In this document: piece after piece, positions 5,169-48,642 of the stretch | Layout of the letters: each line of letters starts with the position of its first letter | Numbering within the stretch: position 1 is the first letter of the stretch | NCBI GenBank assembly: GCA_017531985.1 | Contig: JAFXJY010000013.1 | Coordinates: 7,601-71,600, forward strand | Length of the DNA: 64,000 bases | Direction: 5' to 3' | Source: Bacteroidaceae bacterium | GTDB lineage: Bacteria > Bacteroidota > Bacteroidia > Bacteroidales > Barnesiellaceae_A | Translations under genes and position numbers: made by a program | Notes under the pieces: generated by a model | The model's input: the letters and a program-made list of their open reading frames with translations, nothing else | The model's database searches: none | Told to the model about the DNA's origin: nothing

Positions 5169-8100
5169 TCCTGCTCCTCCTTTACATCTTGCTCCTCAGT
5201 CGGTATCGCATTTATTACCCCATCGGTCGGTTGCGATGGTCTGTTTTCTTCTTTGGTCATAGGTCGCTTACGGAATAAGTCTAATAGCGATCCCACCTGT
5301 TTGCGATAAAGAAATCCGGCACCGGTCTGCGTAATTTCTCCCTCTATTATGCTTTCGTAGCCGGTCTGACGAAATACCTTTATATACATATTATCACGCT
5401 TGGTAAGACGATATTCCAACGATATATCATCAATCAAATTTTCTTTAAGATTTTGTGTTACATCCTGATTGGATGCATAACTACCTCCTACAACAACCTT
5501 CAACCTATTATCCAACAAGCTCTTAGAAAACTGATAGGAATAGTCGGTGCGTTGTGTTCCTGTACCATCGATACCATAATTATCTATTCCGAACGTAAGA
5601 TCGACACCGCGAAGAGTTCGTTGAGCCCAAGTATTCAACTCATATTCAAGAAACGTATTCAGCGGGTTATTTATCAACGAATTTTCGGCTGCCGAGGCTA
5701 AATTGTCGTATGAATTATACAAGAACATGTTCATTGCCTTCACCTCACGTTGTTCGGCCGTAAGACCCTGCAATTCGTTCTCAATAACAAGATCATCGGT
5801 GGTGGCAAGGTCAAAGGATATATCCATGTCCTTCAACGTATTAGATATCATAATGGAGACATCAAAGTCGACCAATCGCGAATCCTCTCCACTCTTCACC
5901 GTCGACCTCTGCGACTGTACTGCCTTAATGTTGAATGTTGGGTCGGCAATATTACCATTCCATGACACATAGCTGCCATCTTCGATATTAAATATCTTCT
6001 GTGAAATAAACGGTGGGGTATATCGCACAAATCCGCCTGTAAGCGTATAACGACCTGTCATCCGATTATCGCCCATAGCTGTCGAGGTGTACAACAGATT
6101 ACCACCACCCACCAAGTCGATACGATTACTTCCATCGAGTGAGAGATTAACACCAAGTTGTACGCCCTGATCTATGTCTATATCTACATTGGCCACCAAG
6201 TTGGCTCGACGTTGAGTATCCGACTCGGTATCAAGCATAGAGGTTGTATCGGAGAAAGTTACAAAACTTACCATTTCGGAATAATCGGTACTCGACAACG
6301 AACGATTACTCTGCATGACATAAGTGGCATTGGTACCCGACAGCAATGAAACATTGCCACTTACATTCAGATTGGCAAGTGTACCTCTCACCCGGGCATC
6401 CACATCTGTGTAGACTGTGCCATATATGATACCGGTACGATTTTCTGCTATATGAATAGGCTGAAAATTCCGAGCTTTAAAATCGAGGTTTATACCCACA
6501 TTGGTCAAACGTGAAAAGTCAATCACACCATCTATATTCAACGGTACATTGTTGGCACCTCTTATACCATATTGTAAAAAGGAGAGGCGACTATTCTTGA
6601 CAGGTATCTCGGTATTGTCAAGTGTAAGTGTGGCTCCTATCTTATCAAATGAGGTTGTTGCATCATCAAATCTTATAAAACCATTAATCGTCGGAGATGA
6701 CAGATGACCGGTAAGTGAGAGACGGCTATTCAGTTCTCCTGAAAATTTACCCATGTCATGGGGGAAAAATGCATTGGCTGCCTCTAACGGAAATTCGCTG
6801 ATAGTAATACTACCATTAATGCCGGGAGTCGGTTGTTGGTCGAGATATGCTACTACATCCAGCACATTATTTCCATCACGCAAGAGTGTTGCCCTTATAT
6901 TGTTTCCTCCTCGTGGCTCGATACTATAATCGACATCGGCATGAAATGTACCCACACGTCGATTATTGTACACATAGTCTATTACATCGAGCGTACCCGC
7001 AGCCTCTACGCCCTCCTCGGGCATATCAATATATACATTGGCCGACAGCAGTCCCGACATAGGTGTAACCAATGGCGACACCACAACCCAGTCGGCTATT
7101 TTAATATCTTGCATATCGATGTGTACTCCGTCGACATCTTTGTTGCGACGTTCCTCTGTCGAAACATATATGTGACTGTTTTCATACGACAATCGCACAT
7201 CGGCCAGTATGTCTCGTTGAGAATGAACATAAGTGAGAAAATTATCACTATTAAGCATCCATCGCTTATATCCAATGATGGGTTCCTGTGGTCCAAAAGT
7301 CAACCTGACTGTATCGGACTTAAAATCGACCTTACATCCAAACAAAAAACCGACATCGTCCTTGCGATTGCGTTGCAGGCAATACAATCTCGTGCTATTG
7401 CCCGATAGAAAACCTTCGACTCGCACATGAGCAAATTCATCCATGTTGCCGGGTCGATTAATCATAGCCAGACTATAATTCAACCTTGCATCCTTTTCAT
7501 GTGCATCAAACGTAATGGTATCCATCAACAAGCCCGATACCTCCATCCGATGTACATACGATGATATATTGAAAAGGGTATCATTCGACACATTACACTT
7601 TACATTGCCCACTCGGATGCCTATACTATTGAGATACTGTTGCAGAATATTATTACCGCTCAATCCTGCTGTAAACTCAAATGGCGGCAGTCCATGATGC
7701 AACTCATCCATGTTGAGACGCTGTTTCTGGAATATTGTATCGACAAACTGTGTGAGACGCTCCATGCCGGGTCGCAATTGTGTCAAGCCCACATCCGACG
7801 ACAGATTGACATCCATGTCGCCTGTACGCAGGTCAAGATAACTATATGTAATATCACTGGCCGCAATCAGTGTGATAGGTTGTGCATAGTAACGATGTTC
7901 ACCTATCCCCAGTAACAGGTCGTTTATCTCCACATCGGCTTGAACAATACTATCGATATTGGATAATACAACCTCGGCAACAATCTGCCCCGACACATCG
8001 AAAGGCTGTCGCATGAAATGCATGGCTGCCAAGTCGAGCTTTCCTATATTCCCATTAAGCCTCATCGACAAAAAATCCTTTTGATACTCACCATGCATCG

Positions 8101-14386: not shown

Positions 14387-14460
14387 GGTTGAGTAGCTCA
14401 GCTGGATAGAGCAACAGCCTTCTAAGCTGTGGGTCCAGGGTTCGAATCCCTGCTCAATCA
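14387..14460 (+). tRNA. tRNA-Arg (anticodon TCT)
   Basis: I folded a 74-nt cloverleaf by hand. Acceptor is GGTTGAG/CTCAATC, D arm GCTC/GAGC, anticodon stem ACAGC/GCTGT with loop CTTCTAA, and T arm CAGGG-TTCGAAT-CCCTG. No CCA is encoded. Confidence 0.9.
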
Positions 14461-14469
14461 CTTCAACAT

Positions 14470-19753: not shown

Positions 19754-20398
19754 ATGCCCCACATTGACACTTTCACTACCAATCAATCAGTTGTCATCGC
19801 TGTGTGGCAACTCACTGAGACTCTCCCACAACTACTGGAACAGTGGGGCGATACGCCCCTTCCCCTCAATTTTACGGAGATTACATCCGAGAGACGACAA
19901 TGCGAAATATTGGCTACAAGACTGTTGCTACGACACCATTATGGTCGAGACATAGAGTTGCATCATCATCCCAACGGTGCCCCCTACATCGATACCGAAA
20001 ACATCTCCATCAGCCACTGCAAGTCGCACATAGCCATTGCCATGCATCCCTCTCGACAAGTGGGAATAGACATTGAAACATTAGGACAAAGAGCTGTTCG
20101 TACAGCAACTCGCTTCCTATCGAGCATGGAATATGCAGCACTCCCCGACGAGACAACCTTGATAGAGGGTATAGAGGCACGCACCGCAACCCTACATATA
20201 GCATGGTCGGTCAAAGAAGCCGTATACAAAATATACCCTACCGCTGTCGAATTTCGCCGAGATATTATCCTACCTTCCTTAATGAGCATCCCCACAGGAA
20301 CAATTGAGGTAGATCTGCCCACGCTCAATACTACAACCACAGCACACTACACACTATACAATGGATGCTCTCTGGCATGGGCTTTACTTAATATATAA
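19754..20398 (+). CDS. 4'-phosphopantetheinyl transferase superfamily protein
   Basis: It carries the ISISH, VGIDIE and WSVKEAVYK motifs. Confidence 0.8.
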   Translation: MPHIDTFTTNQSVVIAVWQLTETLPQLLEQWGDTPLPLNFTEITSERRQCEILATRLLLRHHYGRDIELHHHPNGAPYIDTENISISHCKSHIAIAMHPSRQVGIDIETLGQRAVRTATRFLSSMEYAALPDETTLIEGIEARTATLHIAWSVKEAVYKIYPTAVEFRRDIILPSLMSIPTGTIEVDLPTLNTTTTAHYTLYNGCSLAWALLNI

Positions 20399-20401
20399 GA
20401 C

Positions 20402-21487
20402 TTACATCCTTAATATATACTTCAAGCTGGTTATCAGTTTCGATTTATCCGTCGCAATATTATCAAATTCAATTTGATCTATATCTGCGATATCGAGACG
20501 AATACTCTTGGCATATTGAGCATCGTCAAGCAAAATAGGAATAATGGTTTTATTTTGCTTGACAGCATAACCCAATTCCCTTATTACATTTATTGAAGAA
20601 TTAGAATTAACCGATGAAACAAATATTACTACTTTCGATGTATCAATTGCATCCACTATAAATTCCTTATAATTTTCCCCGCTATATATTCCATTTCTAT
20701 CAATCCAATAGCCAAAGGAATTATTATCTAATACCTCCAATATATTGTCAACTTTTTCTTTATCCTTTCTTGAATAGCTGATAAAAATCTGATGATCGTT
20801 TTTACCCTCCTGCGGTAAAACCACATCTCCTACACATGAAAGTTCTTCTTCCGAAAAAAGTGACTTGTTTTCATACACTGACCGCTGTTGAGTCAAGGCC
20901 GATTGAATAGCGAAATGCTCGAAAATATCGATATAATCCATTTCTCCCGAGACATCACATTGATCATAGAGATATAGTTCTATCTCAAATTGTTTATTCG
21001 TTTTATACAGATTCTCCGAAATAGTATCGGCCATTATCTCGGCAACCTTGGTTATAGGAAAATGTGCCGCACCTGCACCGATACAAGGGAAGGCAATGCT
21101 ATTGATATCCAACGCATGGAGGAGTTTGAAGCATTTATCGATGGAGTGTTGAAGTATATATTTCTGCATATCAGATACCCCATCTTTACTATCAACCTCC
21201 GATGTTGATAGTTTTTTTGATAAGGTTAGACAATGAAATATATACTTCTGATAAGTCAGTAACCCTGAGGTGGAAACAACAACATCGCCCAATTGTGCCG
21301 GCAATTTCTTTTGAGCATCAAGCTTAATAAACTCGCCACCTTTCATAAGGATACTCCGCGACACTCCCCCATCCATAGAGATACCTGTATCATCCGAACT
21401 AACCAAAACTTCGGACTTCGATTGCGTTATATCTCCAAACACAATCGTCAATGTAGAATTATTAAACCGATACTTACGAGGCTTCAT
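20402..21487 (-). CDS. Macrodomain-TIR domain fusion protein
   Basis: The N-terminal half looks like a macrodomain (FGDITQSKSEVLVSSDD, DGGVSRSI, AFPCIGAGAAHFP). The C-terminal half looks like TIR (IFISYSRKDKEKV, VVIFVSSVNSNSSINVIRELGYA). The sequence is AT-rich by eye. Confidence 0.78.
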   Translation of the reverse strand: MKPRKYRFNNSTLTIVFGDITQSKSEVLVSSDDTGISMDGGVSRSILMKGGEFIKLDAQKKLPAQLGDVVVSTSGLLTYQKYIFHCLTLSKKLSTSEVDSKDGVSDMQKYILQHSIDKCFKLLHALDINSIAFPCIGAGAAHFPITKVAEIMADTISENLYKTNKQFEIELYLYDQCDVSGEMDYIDIFEHFAIQSALTQQRSVYENKSLFSEEELSCVGDVVLPQEGKNDHQIFISYSRKDKEKVDNILEVLDNNSFGYWIDRNGIYSGENYKEFIVDAIDTSKVVIFVSSVNSNSSINVIRELGYAVKQNKTIIPILLDDAQYAKSIRLDIADIDQIEFDNIATDKSKLITSLKYILRM

Positions 21488-21494
21488 ACCTTCT

Positions 21495-21896
21495 CTATTT
21501 GGCTTCTAAGATAGGGAGATTTGCCTCTGTGGGTATGTATATAACCTTATCGGTAGCATTGTTCTGTTGACGCACCCACAGGTACTGTATGTAGGTGGGT
21601 GTAAGCGAGCCATTTTCTATTTTTATGGCTTCGGCAGCACCCTTGGCACGTTCCACCTCGGCTTGTGCATTGAGTTTTTCAGCTTCAAGATTGGCCTTAG
21701 CCTCCTCTATTTTAATGCGACGATTTTGTTCTGCTTTGGCAAACTCAGCACGACCGCTCATCTCCTGACTCCACACCGTATAGGTGGGTATCGCAAACAT
21801 AAAAAATGCTACGATGAGAGCCAATGTCAACACTATTGACCAATAAAACGATGCATGATAAGTTGTAGAGCCTTGTGAATGTGTGATGAATTTCAT
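21495..21896 (-). CDS. Small single-pass membrane protein with a coiled coil resembling an SPFH/prohibitin C-terminal tail
   Basis: 133 aa with one TM helix (FYWSIVLTLALIVAFFMFAI), then EFAKAEQNRRIKIEEAKANLEAEKLNAQAEVERAKGAAEAI and a tail ...VIYIPTEANLPILEA. Its stop is 7 nt before the Macro-TIR ATG. Confidence 0.5.
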   Translation of the reverse strand: MKFITHSQGSTTYHASFYWSIVLTLALIVAFFMFAIPTYTVWSQEMSGRAEFAKAEQNRRIKIEEAKANLEAEKLNAQAEVERAKGAAEAIKIENGSLTPTYIQYLWVRQQNNATDKVIYIPTEANLPILEAK

Positions 21897-21931
21897 AATT
21901 ATAAGATTAAAAGGTGAATATTTATAACCAT

Positions 21932-23149
21932 TTATCGCAACATATTGCTTACTCGCTTAACTGCTGCAATAAATGCATCAATTTCTTCAAATGTATTATA
22001 CACCGCAAAAGAAGCTCGCACCGTACCTTCTATTCCAAGTGCATGCATCAGCGGCTGGGCACAGTGATGACCGGTGCGTACGGCAATTCCCAACTTGTCG
22101 AGCAACATACCCATGTCATAATGGTGAATGTTGTCTACAAGAAATGATATAACGGGGGTTTTACGTTGAGCTGTACCATATATTTTGATACCATCAATGG
22201 TCATAAGCTGTGTTGTGGCATAATGTAACAACGCCTCTTCGTGCAATTGCATGGCTTCAAGTCCTACACTCTCCACCCAATCAAGAGCTGTCGCAAAGGC
22301 TGCACTTCCCACATAATCGGGAGTACCGGCCTCAAACTTATAGGGCAACTCGTTGAATGTGGTACGCTCAAACGATACTTGTGCAATCATCTCACCTCCT
22401 CCTTGATAAGGGGGCATGGAATCGAGCCACTTCTCTTTTCCGTATAATACTCCTATTCCGGTGGGGCCATACACCTTATGTGCCGAAAAGACATAGAAAT
22501 CGGCATCTAAGGCTTGTACATCGACCGATAGGTGCGGTATACCCTGAGCACCATCGACCAACACCGGCACATTGTGAGTGTGTGCATATGCGATTATTTC
22601 ATCTATGGGGTTGATAGTACCCAATACATTAGATGCTTGCATGACACATACCAGACGGGTCTTTTCATTGAACAGCGAACGGAATATCTCCATATTGAGT
22701 TCTCCTCGCTCGTCAATAGGCACCACTCGCAACTTTATATCTTTACGTTGTTGCAGTAACTGCCAAGGAACGATGTCGGAATGATGCTCCATCACTGTAA
22801 GTATCACTTCATCACCGTCGTTAAGATGTGCCTGGCCAAAGGAGTGAGCCACTAAGTTAATAGCCTCGGTCGTTCCGCGAGTGAATATTATTTCGTGACT
22901 GTACCGGGCATTGATATAACGCTGCACCTTTTTACGGGTATTTTCATGTGCCTCGGTCGCCTCCTGACTGAGGGTGTGTACTCCACGATGCACATTGGCA
23001 TTGACCCTACAATAGCTGTGGGCTATGCGGTCAATTACGCATTGCGGATGTTGCGATGTGGCTGCGTTATCGAGGTATATGAGCGGTTTACCATATATCT
23101 CGCGTTGCAAGATAGGGAATTGTGAACGTATGGCTGCAACATCAATCAT
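21932..23149 (-). CDS. sufS: Cysteine desulfurase SufS
   Basis: 405-aa class V aminotransferase with the PLP-Lys motif SAHKVYGPTGIGVLYG and a C-terminal RTGHHCAQP catalytic Cys loop. Confidence 0.9.
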   Translation of the reverse strand: MIDVAAIRSQFPILQREIYGKPLIYLDNAATSQHPQCVIDRIAHSYCRVNANVHRGVHTLSQEATEAHENTRKKVQRYINARYSHEIIFTRGTTEAINLVAHSFGQAHLNDGDEVILTVMEHHSDIVPWQLLQQRKDIKLRVVPIDERGELNMEIFRSLFNEKTRLVCVMQASNVLGTINPIDEIIAYAHTHNVPVLVDGAQGIPHLSVDVQALDADFYVFSAHKVYGPTGIGVLYGKEKWLDSMPPYQGGGEMIAQVSFERTTFNELPYKFEAGTPDYVGSAAFATALDWVESVGLEAMQLHEEALLHYATTQLMTIDGIKIYGTAQRKTPVISFLVDNIHHYDMGMLLDKLGIAVRTGHHCAQPLMHALGIEGTVRASFAVYNTFEEIDAFIAAVKRVSNMLR

Positions 23150-23157
23150 AACTCATA

Positions 23158-24507
23158 TTATTTGTGTGTGCGTATGGTACAGTGCTGACACTGCGATAAC
23201 TCACCTCTGAATCGTTTTTCAACCAACTGACGCAAACGGTCTTTGAGTGCATCAAGTCGTACATTTTCTATCACATCACTCATGAATGCAAATTGCAAAA
23301 GCAAGCGAGCTTCACTCTCCGCGATACCGCGTGTACGCATATAGAACAATGCTTGCTGATCGAGTTGTCCAACCGTTGCTCCATGACTGCATTTTACATC
23401 GTCGGCATAAATTTCGAGTTGAGGCTTGGTATACATATGTGCCGTAGGTGATGCACACAAGTTTTTATTGCTCTGATATGCCTCAGTCTTCTGCGAACCT
23501 TCTCGCACCAATATACGCCCGGCAAACGACCCTACTGCATTCTCGTCAAGGACAAACTTAAACAATTCATTACTGTTGCAATGAGCCTTGCGGTGATCGA
23601 TATGAGAATATACATCGACACTCTTCTCTCCATCTGCAATAGCCATTCCGCACAGTTGTGTTTCGCAACCCTCTCCGTCAAGTGCAATATAATAGTTATC
23701 GCGAGTTACTCCGTTGCGTAAGGTAATACCGTTGACAAGAACATTGGATGCAGCCTCTTGATGTACAAAGGTCGATGTCACACGCTTGACGCTCGTTGCA
23801 TTCTCTTCGAGGTTATAATAATCTACCACAGCTCCTTCTCCTGCCCATATTTCGGTTACTTGCGTTACAAGTTGGTCTATCCCATTCTCCTCGCTATGGT
23901 CACACACCAAGAGTTTGACATTAGCACCCTCTTCGGCCACAACAAGGATGCGACGATTGTGCATCATAGGCACATTGCCTCCTATAATATTGACCAACTG
24001 TATGGGGCGATCGAGTACTACATGACGGGGTACATAAAGAAAAAATCCATCTTGTGTCATCAGCGTATTGAGTGCCACCGTACCATCTTTCGACATGTCG
24101 GCTATCTTTCCATAATATCGTGACACAAGTTCAGGATAATCGATTGCCATATCACGAAGTGACCCTATCAACACCCCCTCGGGCAACTCTCTATTGCGTT
24201 CGTTGCGATAGAAATTATCGCCCACAAGAAAATAGAGTTGTGTCGACAAGTTGGGGACATCACAACGGAATGCTTCATGCGGTTGTGAGGGAAGTTCTAT
24301 GCGTGTAATGTTCAAACCATAGTCGGGGGCATACAGAGCCTCGATGTCGGTATGATGAAAATCCTCATGACGAGTGGTGGGCAATCCACATGTTTCCACC
24401 CATCGCAAGGCTTCGGAACGTAAAACATTCAACACCTCGGCCGAGTGGTGGTCTATCACTTCGCGTTGGGCTCGATAGAGGTCTATATATTGTTGTAGTG
24501 CTTGCAT
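23158..24507 (-). CDS. sufD: Fe-S cluster assembly protein SufD
   Basis: 449 aa. It sits between sufC and sufS and has the conserved C-terminal SHGATVGQLD...LFYMRTRGI. Confidence 0.85.
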   Translation of the reverse strand: MQALQQYIDLYRAQREVIDHHSAEVLNVLRSEALRWVETCGLPTTRHEDFHHTDIEALYAPDYGLNITRIELPSQPHEAFRCDVPNLSTQLYFLVGDNFYRNERNRELPEGVLIGSLRDMAIDYPELVSRYYGKIADMSKDGTVALNTLMTQDGFFLYVPRHVVLDRPIQLVNIIGGNVPMMHNRRILVVAEEGANVKLLVCDHSEENGIDQLVTQVTEIWAGEGAVVDYYNLEENATSVKRVTSTFVHQEAASNVLVNGITLRNGVTRDNYYIALDGEGCETQLCGMAIADGEKSVDVYSHIDHRKAHCNSNELFKFVLDENAVGSFAGRILVREGSQKTEAYQSNKNLCASPTAHMYTKPQLEIYADDVKCSHGATVGQLDQQALFYMRTRGIAESEARLLLQFAFMSDVIENVRLDALKDRLRQLVEKRFRGELSQCQHCTIRTHK

Positions 24508-24515
24508 ATCTTATA

Positions 24516-25271
24516 TTATATTTCGCCCAACTCTTTTTTTATCCAATCATAACCCTTCTCTTCAAGTTCGAGAGCCAACTCCGGTCCGCCCGACTTAACA
24601 ATGCGACCTTTATACAACACATGAACATAATCAGGTGCTATATAGTCAAGCAGACGTTGATAGTGCGTAATGACAATAGTTGCATTATTATCACTCTTCA
24701 ACTTATTAACACCTTCGGCAACTATACGAAGAGCATCTATATCAAGACCGCTGTCGGTCTCGTCAAGTATAGACAAACGAGGCTCGAGCATAGCCATTTG
24801 GAAGATTTCGTTACGTTTCTTCTCACCTCCCGAGAATCCTTCATTGACCGAACGGCTTGCCAACTTATTATCGAGCTCGACAATGGCACGTTTCTCACGC
24901 ATCAATTTCAAGAAGTCGGTTGCCGACATGGGTTCTTCGCCACGATACTTACGCAACTCGTTGATGGCAGCACGCATAAAGTTGACCATGCTGACGCCGG
25001 GAATTTCCACCGGATACTGAAAGCTAAGGAAAAGCCCCTCGTGCGAACGATCCTCGGGTGATAAAGACAATAAGTCTTTGCCATAAAATTCCACCTCGCC
25101 TTTGGTTACTTCATAAGCCGGATTTCCTGTAAGCACTGCCGAGAGTGTACTCTTACCCGAGCCATTAGGTCCCATGATAGCATGCACTTCTCCGGGACGG
25201 ACAGTTAGATTTATACCTTTCAATATCTCTTTGCCATTAATATTGGCATGGAGGTCTTCTATTCTTAACAT
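24516..25271 (-). CDS. sufC: Fe-S cluster assembly ATPase SufC
   Basis: Walker A is GPNGSGKST, the ABC signature is FSGGEKKR and Walker B is LSILDETDSGLD. Confidence 0.92.
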   Translation of the reverse strand: MLRIEDLHANINGKEILKGINLTVRPGEVHAIMGPNGSGKSTLSAVLTGNPAYEVTKGEVEFYGKDLLSLSPEDRSHEGLFLSFQYPVEIPGVSMVNFMRAAINELRKYRGEEPMSATDFLKLMREKRAIVELDNKLASRSVNEGFSGGEKKRNEIFQMAMLEPRLSILDETDSGLDIDALRIVAEGVNKLKSDNNATIVITHYQRLLDYIAPDYVHVLYKGRIVKSGGPELALELEEKGYDWIKKELGEI

Positions 25272-25375: not shown

Positions 25376-25383
25376 CAAAGATA
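25376..25383 (-). promoter_or_regulatory. -7 promoter box (TATCTTTG on the minus strand) upstream of sufC
   Basis: The plus strand reads CAAAGATA, about 105 nt upstream of the sufC ATG. Confidence 0.45.
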
Positions 25384-35899: not shown

Positions 35900-35904
35900 C
35901 TTCG

Positions 35905-35978
35905 CTCTTCAGGTTGGACTTGAACCAACGACCCTCTGATTAACAGTCAGATGCTCTAACCGACTGAGCTACTGAAGA
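35905..35978 (-). tRNA. tRNA-Asn (anticodon GTT), copy 1
   Basis: 74-nt cloverleaf on the minus strand: TCTTCAG acceptor, anticodon loop CTGTTAA and T loop TTCAAGT. Confidence 0.9.
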
Positions 35979-36000
35979 ATAAATACTATTAAGAAACTGG

Positions 36001-36074
36001 CTCTTCAGGTTGGACTTGAACCAACGACCCTCTGATTAACAGTCAGATGCTCTAACCGACTGAGCTACTGAAGA
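36001..36074 (-). tRNA. tRNA-Asn (anticodon GTT), copy 2
   Basis: Identical in sequence to copy 1 and separated from it by a 22-nt spacer. Confidence 0.9.
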
Positions 36075-44460: not shown

Positions 44461-45378
44461 ATGATAACAAAGAAATTCAAATCCGTTTTAGAACTATTTG
44501 AGGTATTCTCAACAGAACAAGCCTGTATAGACCATTTGGAACAATTACGTTGGAATGGCAACGTGGTAAGTCCATTTGATTGTACTTCAAAAGTCTATAA
44601 GTGCAAAGATAATAAATATCGTTGTAAAAACACAGGAAAATACTTTAATGTTAAGACAAATACTTTATTTGATAATACTAAAATCCCGTTGCGTAAGTGG
44701 TTTGCTGCTATATGGCTTGTAACTTGTCATAAAAAGGGTGTTTCTTCTCTTCAATTAAGCAGAGATATTGATGTTACACAAAAAACAGCTTGGTTTATGC
44801 TACAACGTATTCGCAACTGTTTCGGCATCGAGAATAATAACGACCTAACTAATACCGTTGAACTTGATGAAACGTATGTTGGTGGCAAGAATAAAAATCG
44901 ACACAACAATAAGAAAATAGAAAATTCACAAGGACGTAGCACAAAGGATAAAACACCCGTATTCGGTATGGTTGAACGAAAGGGTAAACTTAATGCAAAG
45001 GTCGTTACCGATACCAAATGCGAAACCCTAACAAAAGAAACCATCAAATTTGTAAAGGATGCTTTGATTTGCACTGATGAATGGTGGGTTTATAATTCCA
45101 TTAAAAAACTATTCAAACGACACGAGATTGTAAATCATAAGTGTAACGAATATGTGCGTGGCGATGTTTACACCAATACTATCGAAGGTTTTTGGTCGTT
45201 GCTAAAACGTGGTATTATAGGTATATACTATTTTACCTCTAAACAACACTTGCAACGCTATGTTGATGAGTTTGTTTTTAGGTACAATACTCGCAACTAT
45301 TCCGAATGTGGAAGATTTAATTTACTTTTGCAAAATACTGAACATCGTCTAACATATAAAGAATTGATATATGGATAA
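44461..45378 (+). CDS. IS1595-family (ISXO2-like) DDE transposase
   Basis: FSTEQACIDHLEQLRWNG..., IPLRKWFAAIW, ELDETYVGGK, CTDEWWVY and NTIEGFWSLLKR are the family blocks, and the DDE residues appear present. Confidence 0.82.
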   Translation: MITKKFKSVLELFEVFSTEQACIDHLEQLRWNGNVVSPFDCTSKVYKCKDNKYRCKNTGKYFNVKTNTLFDNTKIPLRKWFAAIWLVTCHKKGVSSLQLSRDIDVTQKTAWFMLQRIRNCFGIENNNDLTNTVELDETYVGGKNKNRHNNKKIENSQGRSTKDKTPVFGMVERKGKLNAKVVTDTKCETLTKETIKFVKDALICTDEWWVYNSIKKLFKRHEIVNHKCNEYVRGDVYTNTIEGFWSLLKRGIIGIYYFTSKQHLQRYVDEFVFRYNTRNYSECGRFNLLLQNTEHRLTYKELIYG

Positions 45379-46504
45379 CTATTTGGAAAAATCTCAAAAT
45401 TTCCTATTCTACTCGGATAATGACGGAAAAATAAATGTGCAAGTGATTGTGGATAGTGCTAAAGAAACTATTTGGACTACACAAAAGGGTATGGCAGAAA
45501 TATTTGGTGTAGGTATTCCTGCTATTAGTAAGCATCTATCTAATATTTTCGAGGAGAAAGAACTGCTTGAAAATTCAGTTATTTCCAAAATGGAAACAAC
45601 TGCGACAGACGGGAAAAAATATATAACTACATTCTACACCCTTGATGCCATAATTGCTGTTGGTTATCGTGTAAATAGTTATCAAGCAACCCAATTTAGA
45701 ATATGGGCAACACGCATATTAAAGGAGTATATGATAAAAGGTTTTGCATTAGATGACGACAGATTAAAGCAAGGCAAACATTTATTTGGTAAAGATTTTT
45801 TCAAAGAACTTATTGAACGAATCCAAGAAATTCGTGCTTCAGAAAGAATGTTCTATGAAAAAATTACTGATATATTCAAAGATTGTAGTATTGACTATGA
45901 CCCCAATTCACCAATTGCAAAAGAATTTTATGCTTCAATGCAAAATAAATTTCATTATGCTTCCCACCAACATACTGCACCTGAAATTATATATGAACGT
46001 GCGGATTCCACAAAACCATATATGGGATTAACAAGTTGGAAAAATCAAAAAAGTGGAGGAAAAATTTATAAATCAGATGTAACAATAGCCAAGAACTATT
46101 TAAAAGAAGATGAAATAAAGGCGTTAAATAAACTCGTAAATATGTTTCTTGACCATGCAGAACGATTAGCTGAAAAAGGGAAAGGGACTTACACTATGGC
46201 TGATTGGGTAAAAAGATTAGATATGTTCTTAAACTTTAACGAATATCCTATTCTTACAAATGCTGGTAAAGTGAAACGTGATGTTGCAAATCGATTCGCT
46301 GAATCCGAATATAAGAAGTTTAGAGTAATACAAGATAGGGAATATAAATCAGATTTCAACAAATTAATCGAAGCCAGCCATAACGGGTTACCCAATGAAT
46401 GCGATAAGAATGATGGAAGCAACTTATCACCTTTAGACCAATCACTAAACATAGCCCTTAACTACAACCCAAACAAAGATAAAAACCAAGAGCCGACTGA
46501 ATAA
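45371..46504 (+). CDS. RhuM-family protein
   Basis: DGKINVQV....ETIWTTQKGMAEIFGV, YTLDAIIAVGYRVNS.QATQFRIWATRILKEY and IQEIRASERMFYEKITDIF are characteristic RhuM blocks. It overlaps the transposase stop by 8 nt. Confidence 0.82.
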   Translation: MDNYLEKSQNFLFYSDNDGKINVQVIVDSAKETIWTTQKGMAEIFGVGIPAISKHLSNIFEEKELLENSVISKMETTATDGKKYITTFYTLDAIIAVGYRVNSYQATQFRIWATRILKEYMIKGFALDDDRLKQGKHLFGKDFFKELIERIQEIRASERMFYEKITDIFKDCSIDYDPNSPIAKEFYASMQNKFHYASHQHTAPEIIYERADSTKPYMGLTSWKNQKSGGKIYKSDVTIAKNYLKEDEIKALNKLVNMFLDHAERLAEKGKGTYTMADWVKRLDMFLNFNEYPILTNAGKVKRDVANRFAESEYKKFRVIQDREYKSDFNKLIEASHNGLPNECDKNDGSNLSPLDQSLNIALNYNPNKDKNQEPTE

Positions 46505-46516
46505 ATCGGCTCTTGG
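46486..46516. terminator. Bidirectional terminator spanning the rhuM stop codon
   Basis: CCAAGAGCCGA / TCGGCTCTTGG form a perfect 11-bp stem. An A5 run precedes it on the plus strand, which reads as a T-run on the minus strand. Confidence 0.7.
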
Positions 46517-46543
46517 TACATAATACGATTAAGTATTTTTGTT

Positions 46544-46912
46544 TTACTCAAAGTCATAATCTTTTTCTAATAAGGCACTTTGATAACGAGCATTTTTAAC
46601 AAGGGTTCTATATCCTTTTATGATTGGTAGCAAAATAAGGTTTTCTATTGCTACAACTAATGATACTATAAAGATAATAGGAATTACGTCGTTATATGGT
46701 TCAACAAAAGCACCTACAAAAGTTACAAATGCTAATATTAAACTTATAATACTAAACACAAAGCATAATTTAGATAGTATGGTTAAACCATATATACCCG
46801 AACCATCGTAATTAACTTTGATTTTTTCTTTAGTACCATCAATGTTTTTTTGACTTTCTTTCTCACTCATAATAGTTTGTTCTTCTTTGTTTGTAAATAC
46901 ATCTTGTTCCAT
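46544..46912 (-). CDS. Small membrane protein with two TM helices, family unknown
   Basis: The ATG at 46912 (MEQDVF...) avoids overlap with the upstream gene. The two hydrophobic helices are LCFVFSIISLILAFVTFVGAF and IPIIFIVSLVVAIENLILLPII. The alternative track start is 46957. Confidence 0.5.
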   Translation of the reverse strand: MEQDVFTNKEEQTIMSEKESQKNIDGTKEKIKVNYDGSGIYGLTILSKLCFVFSIISLILAFVTFVGAFVEPYNDVIPIIFIVSLVVAIENLILLPIIKGYRTLVKNARYQSALLEKDYDFE

Positions 46913-46922
46913 AATAATAATT

Positions 46923-47255
46923 TTAATCCCAACCGTTTTCATTGAAATATTCGTCAATCATATCTAAGTCTCTTTTTTGTTCTTGTGAACCTTGATAGTG
47001 TATTTGTTTATCTCCTTCAGGAGATGTATAGCCACCACCTTGCATATATTCCCTTCTCGCATTTCTTTCTATATCTGCTGCACCATCCATACCTGCGTCA
47101 CGTAAATTTTGTTCTCTATCGATAGATTCCCAATAGTTCTCATCTTCAACATATCTTGAAGAAGAACTACTATAATTGCTATCGCAACTAATACAAGAAT
47201 TAAAGGAAATGCAACACAAAATGGCTACACTAGCTGACAGTAAAATTTTTTGCAT
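46923..47255 (-). CDS. Small lipoprotein, family unknown
   Basis: The ATG at 47255 gives MQKILLSASVAILCCISFNSC, a signal peptide with a lipobox. The longer track ORF would run through a hairpin followed by a T-run at 47315-47342. Confidence 0.5.
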   Translation of the reverse strand: MQKILLSASVAILCCISFNSCISCDSNYSSSSSRYVEDENYWESIDREQNLRDAGMDGAADIERNARREYMQGGGYTSPEGDKQIHYQGSQEQKRDLDMIDEYFNENGWD

Positions 47256-47313
47256 AATAATTTGTTTTATAGTTTGTGCAATATTGCCTTTGTTTGTTGT
47301 GGCAGTAACTACA

Positions 47314-47513
47314 CAAAAAAACGTAGGGCTACTACCGTACGTCATCAAGGCTCACCACAAGCCAACCTACAAACGGAGTGTCCCTACGAATATCGCAGGT
47401 ACTCAACAGTAGGTATTATGCTCGTGTTCATTCGAGGTGGTGATTCTGATGACGTTGAGCAAATATTTTCAAAAGGTCTGCAATAGAGCTTCGCTTATTG
47501 CGTTGCAAATATA
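47314..47513 (-). promoter_or_regulatory. Candidate structured leader or attenuator (or an sRNA of about 185 nt) upstream of the lipoprotein operon
   Basis: On the minus strand there is a -7 box TATATTTG (47506-47513) and a hairpin followed by U7 (47315-47342). The upstream heptamer CGUAGGG (47382-47388) is perfectly complementary to the hairpin's 3' arm. A 9-bp long-range pairing links 47339-47347 with 47447-47455. Confidence 0.35.
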
Positions 47514-47515
47514 GC
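47496..47515 (+). repeat. Direct repeat copy 1 flanking the PanA cassette
   Basis: The sequence is TATTGCGTTGCAAATATAGC. Confidence 0.55.
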
Positions 47516-47577
47516 ACAAATTATTAAACCAAAGTGTTAAAATATAGTCCAAGTTTTGTATGTATATATTTAGTTAG

Positions 47578-47585
47578 TACTTTTG
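47578..47585 (+). promoter_or_regulatory. -7 promoter box (TACTTTTG)
   Basis: Matches TAnnTTTG, 21 nt upstream of the ATG at 47606. Confidence 0.5.
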
Positions 47586-47605
47586 TGTATTAAAATAATG
47601 TGTAT

Positions 47606-48124
47606 ATGAAAACTAATTTGGGAATAAATGACATAGCAGATTTTGTGTTATTATACTGCTTTGAAAACGAAATTTCAATAAGTCCATTGAAATTACAGAA
47701 GTTATTGTATTATATACAGGCTTGGCATTTAGTGTACTTTGATAAACAATTATTGTTTGAAGAAAAGCCCCAAGCTTGGGTAAATGGTCCCGTATATCCA
47801 ACTATATATAATAGATTTAAGGGTATATTAAGATATTCCGAGTTAAACAAAGAAAATACCGGTTTGTCATCAACAACATTAGAGGATAAACAGCAAATAT
47901 TGGATTTAGACAAAGAACAATATGAGTTTTTAGACTCAATATTCCATCACTATGGTATGATGGAACACGATAGACTTGTTTTTTTGACACACGCAGAATT
48001 ACCTTGGAGTGAAAAACGGGATGGGCTAATGCCTTTTGAGCCATCCGATAACGAAATTTCATTTGAAACGATGTTTAATTATTACAATCAAAGAATGATT
48101 AAAAACAGGGAAAAGAAACAATGA
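47606..48124 (+). CDS. Panacea/DUF4065 (SocA/GepA-like) domain protein, putative PanA-type antitoxin
   Basis: The motifs are SPLKLQKLLYYIQAWHLVYFDKQLLFEEKPQAWVNGPVYPTIYNRF and, later, LTHAELPWSE. The track start at 47600 is GTG, so I prefer the ATG at 47606. Confidence 0.8.
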   Translation: MKTNLGINDIADFVLLYCFENEISISPLKLQKLLYYIQAWHLVYFDKQLLFEEKPQAWVNGPVYPTIYNRFKGILRYSELNKENTGLSSTTLEDKQQILDLDKEQYEFLDSIFHHYGMMEHDRLVFLTHAELPWSEKRDGLMPFEPSDNEISFETMFNYYNQRMIKNREKKQ

Positions 48125-48642
48125 GTTTTGGTGGAATCGACTATGATGCAGATGAGTTAAATGAATTGCATCGCAGATATGAAATAGGAGATAGAATCAT
48201 TAATAATGACATTTATATATCAAAAACAATATCACCAGTAATATGCTATAGCCATATAGATTTATCAGGAAGCGAATATTCATTTAATAAAGTTGAATTT
48301 AAGGAAGATGTCTGTTTATATTTAGAAAAGATTAAGGCTTTGTGCGACAATTCTATTGATGAATTATCAAGTAAAGACTCAAAAAGAGAATGGCATTTGT
48401 TTCCAACCAGAGGGAAAAAAATTATAACTGAATTAAAAAGACATTTTAACGTCAAAAAAATAGACCAAGATAGAGTTCCCGAAATTTATCATTTTGCATT
48501 ATATACAGACCAAGATAAAGCTGATAAAGAAACGGGGAAACGTTCTCCAAGAATACATTTTATTGTGGGAAATCATGGTATGCTATACCCTCTATTCTAC
48601 GACCCATACCACGAAATAAATTCTATGCCAGAAAACAGGTAG
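48121..48642 (+). CDS. Unknown 173-aa protein coupled to the Panacea gene, candidate toxin
   Basis: Its ATG overlaps the upstream stop (ATGA). It has no TM helix or signal peptide, and I recognise no family. Confidence 0.5.
   Translation: MSFGGIDYDADELNELHRRYEIGDRIINNDIYISKTISPVICYSHIDLSGSEYSFNKVEFKEDVCLYLEKIKALCDNSIDELSSKDSKREWHLFPTRGKKIITELKRHFNVKKIDQDRVPEIYHFALYTDQDKADKETGKRSPRIHFIVGNHGMLYPLFYDPYHEINSMPENR

Follow-up and report, generated by a model that had tools for sequence, protein, structure and literature searches.

A Macro-TIR fusion gene beside a suf block and a candidate family of sensor-gated TIR effectors in Bacteroidales

A contig of a Bacteroidaceae bacterium (GenBank assembly GCA_017531985.1, contig JAFXJY010000013.1) carries a gene for a 361-amino-acid (aa) protein in which an N-terminal Macro domain is fused to a C-terminal TIR domain (Macro-TIR). 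We followed up this gene within a stretch of 64,000 nucleotides (nt; positions 7,601 to 71,600 of the contig, hereafter the window), for which an earlier reading of the bare sequence, the original prediction, had proposed a self-contained module of NAD+ and ADP-ribose (ADPR) signalling made of this protein and an adjoining 133-aa membrane/coiled-coil protein. The fusion and the geometry of the locus were reproduced, and the two-protein module was not borne out. We cautiously favour the view that the 361-aa protein by itself belongs to a Bacteroidales family of effectors in which a ligand-sensing Macro domain would gate a TIR NADase (NAD+-cleaving enzyme).

The Macro-TIR gene and the suf block

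Both open reading frames (ORFs) of the original prediction were recovered with the same coordinates, strand and lengths, 361 aa and 133 aa (Table 1), and so were the short distances around them: 7 nt from the stop codon of the 133-aa ORF to the Macro-TIR ATG, a gap of 3 nt (20399-20401) that separates the Macro-TIR stop codon from that of a convergent 4'-phosphopantetheinyl transferase (PPTase) gene, and a 35-nt spacer between sufS and the 133-aa ORF. The 361-aa ORF is an intact Macro and TIR fusion, both halves of which exceed the Pfam cut-offs: Macro (PF01661) at aa 34-152 with an E value of 9.4e-14 and 51.8 bits (cut-off 22), TIR_2 (PF13676) at aa 234-343 with an E value of 2.5e-19 and 70.4 bits (cut-off 28), and TIR (PF01582) with 29.9 bits (cut-off 21.3). 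In an AlphaFold2 (AF2) model based on 67 relatives, with a mean pLDDT of 76, a Macro fold at aa 4-173 is followed by a flavodoxin-like TIR at aa 234-358. No hydrophobic helix or transmembrane (TM) segment was found in the 361-aa protein, the Macro fold of which begins at residue 4.

Table 1. Features of the window, with positions counted from its first nucleotide
Feature	Position	Strand	Remarks
PPTase gene	19754..20398	plus	convergent; Pfam ACPS, E 6.6e-10; bounds the locus, unrelated to Macro-TIR
Macro-TIR gene	20402..21487	minus	361 aa; intact, full length relative to the family
TIR domain	20453..20794	minus	about aa 232-345; FISYSRKD, WID..G..G.N BB-loop region, E304; GC 0.30
Linker	20798..20944	minus	helix aa 182-211, then disordered low-confidence segment aa 208-229 (AF2)
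Macro domain	20948..21466	minus	about aa 8-180
Synteny breakpoint	21494..21499	unstranded	blastn collinearity with four related species stops at the stop codon of the 133-aa gene
133-aa ORF	21495..21896	minus	single-pass membrane/coiled-coil protein; adjoins Macro-TIR, not a partner; last conserved gene of the sufC-sufD-sufS block
sufS	21932..23149	minus	Pfam and gene calls
sufD	23158..24507	minus	Pfam and gene calls
sufC	24516..25271	minus	Pfam and gene calls
tRNA-Arg(TCT) gene	14387-14461
Two tandem tRNA-Asn(GTT) genes	35904-36074
IS1595-family transposase	44461-45378		accessory islet
RhuM-family gene	45371-46504		accessory islet
SocA/Panacea antitoxin-domain gene	47600-48124		overlaps the 173-aa ORF
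173-aa ORF	48121-48642		no Pfam match

The TIR-coding part is AT-rich, as had been noted from the sequence, with a GC content of 0.303 and a third-position GC (GC3) of 0.28 against a mean of 0.436 for the genes of the window (standard deviation 0.043, n=47); the GC content of the whole gene is 0.363. In four related species, the sufS of which is 82-88% identical, the 133-aa gene likewise follows sufC-sufD-sufS and is never followed by Macro-TIR. The Macro-TIR gene is thus absent at this locus from the relatives compared, and the 133-aa gene is followed by dtd-MazG-DeoC (one species), by convergent NrdG-NrdD (two) or by a convergent Na/H exchanger (one). Blastn collinearity with the four species, at 77-78% identity, ends exactly at the stop codon of the 133-aa gene. 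The analysis supports a gene that is compositionally atypical and lineage-specific at the suf site.

The 133-aa gene has a distribution of its own. Among 80 more distant metagenome loci of this gene (67-84% identity), 54 had enough downstream sequence, and Macro-TIR lay downstream in none of the 54 (none of them with sufS upstream). In the flanks of 19 fetched Macro-TIR homologue loci, no homologue of the 133-aa protein, sufS, PPTase or GldD was found. The two families also differ in size and conservation: the 133-aa family comprises more than 6500 database clusters and its nearest relatives are 91-95% identical, whereas Macro-TIR has 807 matches, the nearest of which other than itself is only 67% identical, against 85-96% conservation of the neighbouring genes. 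Together, the four relatives, the 0 of 54 downstream regions and the 0 of 19 flanks refute the proposed coupling of the two proteins and, with the 133-aa gene distributed independently of Macro-TIR, leave the notion of a self-contained module unsupported. A two-gene unit, in which the 133-aa protein would be a Thoeris-type membrane effector or in which both genes would serve a housekeeping ADPR/NAD metabolism tied to Fe-S assembly, could appeal to the shared strand, the 7-nt gap and probable co-transcription. It is nonetheless very unlikely, since the 133-aa gene occurs without Macro-TIR in all four relatives and all 54 testable metagenome loci and is missing from 19 of 19 Macro-TIR loci, the nearest-relative identities diverge (95% for the 133-aa protein and 67% for Macro-TIR), and collinearity breaks exactly between the two genes.

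Of the features that had been ascribed to the 133-aa protein, the hydrophobic segment (aa 17-39) and the long helix (aa 15-96) were confirmed, and the likeness to the tail of SPFH/prohibitin proteins found little support. The AF2 model consists of one long helix, aa 15-96, and a second helix, aa 100-112, with a highly conserved tail. The protein matched no Pfam family at E values up to 1, SPFH (PF01145) included, and had no PADLOC match; the match to the prohibitin-2 coiled coil in a PDB sequence search was not significant (E 2.3), and a profile of the 133-aa family matched nothing in the PDB. With the Pfam, PDB sequence and PDB profile searches negative or insignificant, SPFH identity was rejected. 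One database record labels a 133-aa homologue 'Prohibitin-2', and the family profile matches phrog_11227, annotated as 'protease', with an E value of 2.5e-38. In this family, the coiled coil and the C-terminal part (AEFAKAEQNRRIKIEEAKANLEAEKLNAQAE...YIQYLWVRQQ...IYIPTEANLPILEA) hardly vary and stand behind a variable TM helix; homologues of 67-84% identity (loci L105-L184) occupy many non-suf contexts, some of them prophage-like arrays of small ORFs. The sufC-sufD-sufS-133aa block (21495-25271 in the window; also loci L001, L097, L101 and L185) has no adjacent sufB, and in five species synteny breaks off on either side of it; NrdG-NrdD lies downstream of the block in two relatives and upstream of sufC in the window.

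No empty site, with the 133-aa gene directly convergent with PPTase, was found, and none of the sampled relatives shares the downstream PPTase-GldD context; we therefore describe Macro-TIR as a gene specific to its lineage that lies at a synteny breakpoint, a simple insertion not being proven. Neither inverted repeats nor target-site duplications were found as a pair flanking the gene. An exact 11-nt direct repeat, CTTAATATATA, occurs at 20387-20397 and 20409-20419, 22 nt apart, and spans the convergent PPTase and Macro-TIR stop codons; both copies sit at the 3' junction. The repeat does not represent a duplication flanking Macro-TIR and may be a chance occurrence in AT-rich sequence. The same gene arrangement is present on a contig from a second sample at 99.1% nucleotide identity, from which we conclude that the junction is real and not an assembly artefact. 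Rarity, poor conservation relative to its neighbours, low GC content and absence from four relatives give Macro-TIR the character of an accessory gene.

Counts of predicted terminators and sigma-70 promoters did not exceed those in shuffled sequence and are uninformative for a Bacteroidetes genome. The Bacteroidetes-type promoter motif TAnnTTTG has its only same-strand copy at 25383, upstream of sufC, and was found neither within 313 nt upstream of the Macro-TIR ATG nor in the spacer between sufS and the 133-aa ORF. Because of this distribution of the motif, Macro-TIR is probably expressed by read-through from the suf operon, that is, by inferred co-transcription.

The low GC content of the gene and the frequent use of Macro domains by viruses in counter-defence (PMC9503650) could be taken to favour an enzyme, derived from a phage or mobile element, that acts in anti-defence or detoxification by destroying the host's ADPR immune signals, an alternative raised in the original prediction. 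It received no support. A tblastn search of 50,697 phage records returned no full-length homologue and a single Macro-only match at 27% identity, neither an IMG/VR scan nor the PLSDB plasmids contained a full-length Macro-TIR homologue, and no integrase or phage genes adjoin Macro-TIR. A TIR domain with a catalytic Glu, moreover, is not expected in a signal sponge, and we consider such an origin extremely unlikely.

The Macro and TIR halves

Judged by its sequence, the Macro domain looks like an ADPR binder and not like a canonical hydrolase, because its phosphate-binding loops are invariant and the catalytic Asn and Asp of MacroD enzymes are replaced. Conserved residues were scored in an alignment of 67 family members. 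SSDD (aa 30-33) occupies the place of NAAN in MacroD enzymes; loop 1 reads M-D-G-G-V-S (aa 38-43) and loop 2 reads FPCIGAGAAHFP (aa 133-144), in agreement with the invariant loop motifs of the family, M-x-G-G-[VIL]-S and P-C-I-G-A-G-x-A. G40, G41, S43, P134, G137, G139 and A141 are invariant in 67/67 sequences, and the adenine-contacting position 19 is Asp in 53/67. When aligned with the macrodomain of Oceanobacillus iheyensis (OiMacroD), D33 (Asp in 66/67) falls on Asn30 and S43 on Asp40; thus, both ADPR-binding loops are kept, and neither the MacroD catalytic Asn (of NAAN) nor the Asp (of GGGVD) is.

The NCBIfam macro equivalogs scored 28.0 to 54.9 bits against cut-offs of at least 200 (for example, 54.9 against 252). 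A Foldseek search of the PDB with the AF2 model retrieved macro domains with E values of about 1e-11 and target-normalised TM scores of 0.75-0.82, including those of macroH2A1.1, OiMacroD, PARP14 and PARP9. Among the best structural matches are the non-catalytic macroH2A1.1 and PARP14 macro 2, both of which have been classed as binders (Shi et al. 2024, PMC11204291).

In the TIR half, the motifs FISYSRxD and WID..G..G.N are invariant across the 67 family members. The Glu that the original prediction had located at the TIR catalytic position is present as E304 (codon 20576-20578, in VIRELGY) and is likewise invariant in 67/67 sequences. When aligned with the SPARTA TIR-APAZ protein, it falls on the Glu of the LKEL motif, and it occupies what we take to be the catalytic E77 position of TIR NADases. 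By these residues, the TIR domain looks catalytically competent. The solved TIRs nearest to the family profile are those of TIR-STING (E 4.4e-5), Cat1 (E 2e-4) and SARM1/TIR-1 (E 2e-4), together with TIR-APAZ, all of which are effector TIRs under the control of a fused or bound sensor. The TIR of the window protein also gave partial matches to the PADLOC model SAVED_TIR and to the Pfam family CAP12-PCTIR_TIR.

Distribution, domain swaps and gene neighbourhoods of the family

Full-length Macro-TIR occurs in only 10 of 185,579 species representative genomes, all of them Bacteroidales, mostly rumen or gut metagenome-assembled genomes (MAGs) labelled Prevotellaceae or Bacteroidaceae, and also Prevotella sp. 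HCN-7019. The Macro-TIR relatives, 57-67% identical to the window protein, are likewise confined to Bacteroidales. When 1.84 billion representative proteins were searched exhaustively with a profile, 409 reached E values of 1e-30 or below, and about 50 of these are full-length Macro-TIR clusters.

The wider set reveals one Macro subtype, with the signature SSDD..MGGGVS..FPAIGAG..FFExFA, that is fused at its C-terminus to TIR_2, DUF4062 or a CHAT protease; the conserved FFExFA helix of the linker is common to the Macro-DUF4062 and Macro-CHAT relatives. In some proteins with the same subtype a longer linker precedes the TIR, and the Macro-TIR core can carry N-terminal additions, namely TIR, FHA, protein kinase, N6-methylase, metallopeptidase-like and ECF-sigma domains; TIR-Macro-TIR proteins (P0247, P0281) exist as well. 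A constant ligand-binding domain placed before interchangeable toxic domains is a hallmark of the sensor-effectors of CBASS, type III CRISPR and Thoeris systems, and effector swapping is the pattern of the SAVED, CARF and SLOG sensor domains. Seven further proteins of 1400-2300 aa (P0275, P0288, P0289, P0294-P0296, P0307) contain 5-7 tandem TIR domains related to the TIR of the family.

In 12 of 13 independent homologue loci, Macro-TIR is accompanied by one to five further TIR genes, often directly adjoining and co-directional. In a Pfam search of 95 neighbouring proteins, 27 contained TIR_2 and 11 ThsB_TIR, and TPR, WD40, Sel1, nSTAND1, AAA_16, RyR and Pkinase domains were also found; individual loci add vWA, MORN, TerB, ADP-ribosylglycohydrolase-phosphatase, Tubulin_2, transglutaminase, trypsin and TPR-CHAT proteins. 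PADLOC detected no complete system among the 95 neighbours, returning domain-level matches to TIR, PD-T4-6 kinase-type and TPR models.

Individual loci showed further peculiarities. A four-gene module recurs upstream of Macro-TIR in three species (loci L013, L021 and L024). It encodes a protein of about 750 aa, a DUF1492-like protein of 184 aa, a protein with a RyR domain and a PrsW-like protease, and may represent a separate conflict system into which TIR genes are recruited. In a buffalo-rumen MAG (locus L023, 10001-10765), the homologous ORF stops after the Macro half, at 254 aa, and tblastn similarity runs on into the TIR part; this copy, which lies inside an array of six TIR genes, is probably frameshifted. 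A RhuM homologue is located directly downstream of Macro-TIR in locus L018.

Elsewhere in the window, a RhuM-family gene belongs to a low-GC (0.31-0.34) accessory islet at 44461-48642, in which the SocA/Panacea gene and the overlapping 173-aa ORF probably form a toxin-antitoxin pair. An Rfam scan of the window gave no matches beyond the three tRNA genes listed in Table 1.

Relation to known systems and proposed mechanism

As the original prediction had held, no named system accommodates Macro-TIR: PADLOC and NCBIfam family scores stay below threshold, and no complete known system was detected. No paper in the searchable literature uses the terms Macro-TIR, TIR-Macro or macrodomain-TIR (the survey of Burroughs et al. 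2015 (NAR) lies outside that search). The label 'Thoeris-like' holds as an analogy of logic and fails as a statement of membership, given that there is neither a ThsA match nor a separate co-occurring effector gene. The PADLOC ThsB matches are limited to some 90 aa of the TIR (best E value 3.6e-8), the NCBIfam model of type III Thoeris ThcB4 scored 32.7 bits against a cut-off of 220, and the sole same-strand neighbour, the 133-aa gene, does not co-occur with Macro-TIR as a Thoeris partner would. With respect to CBASS and Pycsar, the protein contains no SAVED, STING or cNMP sensor, and no cyclase adjoins it in the window or in the fetched homologue loci.

In type II Thoeris, the Macro domain of TM-Macro ThsA (renamed ThsC) reads TIR-made His-ADPR, ADPR or imidazole adenine dinucleotide (IAD) (PMC11204291; bioRxiv 10.64898/2025.12.03.692087), and Ka et al. 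2020 (PMC7272460) note that in more than 50% of Thoeris loci one thsA gene is surrounded by several diverse copies of thsB. The loci of the present family resemble Thoeris in that one Macro gene stands among several diverse TIR genes. In contrast to type II Thoeris, Macro-TIR has no TM segment, its effector is a TIR, and Macro and TIR share one chain; the window has no separate ThsB gene, and the TM helix there belongs to the separate, unlinked 133-aa gene. No Thoeris macro structures were among the PDB sequence matches listed. Type I ThsA (SIR2-SLOG) similarly has a nucleotide-sensing domain that gates an NAD+-depleting domain, although both domains are unrelated to those of Macro-TIR (SLOG versus Macro, SIR2 versus TIR). 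A recent systematic survey of 29 putative Thoeris types names Macro, in its main text, solely as the effector domain of type II, and it explicitly set aside stand-alone TIR proteins (bioRxiv 10.64898/2025.12.03.692087).

The closest counterparts of the N-terminal half are MacroD- and macroH2A-type proteins (OiMacroD, YmdB, Af1521, TTHA0132, PARP14 macro 2, PARP9 and macroH2A1.1), at 20-25% identity and E values of 1e-9 to 1e-14; unlike the MacroD hydrolases, Macro-TIR has Asp33 and Ser43 in place of the catalytic Asn and Asp, and its Macro is fused to a TIR. The overall architecture is that of CBASS TIR-SAVED (Cap12), TIR-STING, Cat1 (CARF-TIR) and SARM1 (ARM-SAM-TIR), which also combine a small-molecule-binding domain and a catalytic-Glu TIR in one polypeptide. 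Macro-TIR differs from these in that its sensor is a Macro domain, it has no cyclase or CRISPR partner, and its TIR resembles theirs at the superfamily level only. By analogy, it is functionally closest to these four proteins and a member of none of their groups.

The co-directional arrays in which Macro-TIR usually resides share TIR, nSTAND1, AAA_16, TPR, WD40 and Sel1 domains, and also CHAT, trypsin, Pkinase, vWA and RyR, with the multi-TIR/STAND-TPR-WD40 conflict systems of Kaur et al. 2020, 2021 (PMC7159879, PMC8195603); the sections of those papers available to us describe no Macro-TIR component, and the window copy lies outside such an array. Residence in TIR arrays with STAND, TPR and WD40 modules, which resemble the effector/adaptor systems of the same authors (PMC7159879, PMC8195603), would fit a non-enzymatic adaptor that, through homotypic TIR-TIR assembly, brings Macro into a signalosome to read ADP-ribosylated proteins. 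An invariant Glu at the catalytic position favours enzyme activity instead, and the window offers no TIR partners; we regard an adaptor role as quite improbable.

In the sensor-gated reading that we favour, which takes its start from the observed domain identities, conserved residues, distribution and contexts, the Macro domain would be a receptor for ADPR or an ADPR-derived small molecule and not a MacroD-type hydrolase. Ligand binding would lead to oligomerisation of the C-terminal TIR, the assembled TIR would cleave NAD+ via E304, and the ensuing NAD+ depletion would arrest or kill the infected cell (abortive infection). In the typical arrays, neighbouring TIR proteins would be candidate signal producers. 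The window copy would be a solitary orphan at the synteny breakpoint behind sufCDS-133aa, probably read through, with no part played by the 133-aa protein.

Several points weigh against this reading. Ligand sensing, NADase activity and a role in phage defence or immunity are, for all family members, inferred. The 64-kb window contains no other TIR gene or recognisable signal generator, and the window neighbours of Macro-TIR are housekeeping genes, not a defence island. All-versus-all clustering of the neighbours of the family found no partner kept across loci, any module being confined to at most three of them. The conserved S43, D32 and D33 could, by their position in the alignment, constitute a non-canonical hydrolytic site, the loss of the MacroD Asn and Asp being no proof to the contrary. 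Finally, the TIR half also passes the Pfam cut-off for ThsB_TIR (24.6 bits against 21.2) and matches PADLOC ThsB models, and could be of the signal-generating type instead.

The last two points are shared by the main rival explanation, in which a ThsB-like TIR would make an ADPR messenger and the Macro domain in cis would hydrolyse, trim or sequester the product, setting a threshold or converting the signal. The ThsB_TIR score, the partial PADLOC ThsB and NCBIfam ThcB4 matches, the true hydrolases OiMacroD, YmdB and Af1521 among the sequence neighbours of the Macro domain, the possible catalytic role of the polar residues S43, D32 and D33, and the existence of TIR-Macro-TIR proteins are all consistent with such a producer fused to its own eraser. 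We consider it rather unlikely: the MacroD Asn and Asp are missing, the nearest solved TIRs are of effector types, no conserved downstream effector gene adjoins the family and none is present in the window, and the placement of the same Macro subtype before CHAT and DUF4062 is hard to square with the editing of its own TIR's product.

A sole TIR gene in 64 kb, set against TIR neighbours in 12 of 13 relatives, together with the position at a synteny breakpoint and the low GC content, would suit an orphan remnant, that is, a stranded part of a multi-TIR array that was captured at a rearrangement breakpoint and is functionless without its partners. This alternative appears improbable. The ORF is intact, and the window protein keeps all 71 invariant residues of the family; with only 10 departures from the consensus, mostly conservative, among 172 conserved columns, it ranks in the middle of the family, and the gene is by all appearances not decaying. 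The near-identical arrangement in the second sample also speaks against a remnant, and partners could lie beyond the window.

The sensor-gated reading can be extended. It is possible, at a lower confidence than the gating of the single protein, that Macro(SSDD/GGGVS) is the receptor of a previously undescribed Thoeris-like network of gut and rumen Bacteroidales, in which several neighbouring sensor TIR proteins would make an ADPR-derived messenger that interchangeable Macro-gated effectors would read; Macro-TIR may then cause NAD+ depletion and Macro-CHAT proteolysis, with Macro-DUF4062 as a third effector. On this view, a stand-alone Macro-TIR such as the window copy could act as a self-amplifying switch, in which ADPR released by the TIR feeds its own Macro domain, making a one-protein trigger of abortive infection.

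For annotation, the lesson of this locus is that a tight 7-nt junction is here no evidence of a functional pair. The more valuable outcome is the picture of a family, with Macro-TIR, Macro-DUF4062 and Macro-CHAT proteins inside multi-TIR Bacteroidales arrays. Macro-TIR is compact (about 360 aa), offers E304, G40/G41 and D19 as targets for mutation and has natural effector-swapped variants, which makes the hypothesis directly testable. If the hypothesis is correct, Macro would join SAVED, STING, CARF and SLOG as a direct gate of a TIR NADase, with a CHAT protease and DUF4062 also under its control. Thoeris-type ADPR signalling would then reach Bacteroidales, a dominant but poorly sampled group of the gut and rumen with few defence systems tested so far, and would gain a new class of effector.

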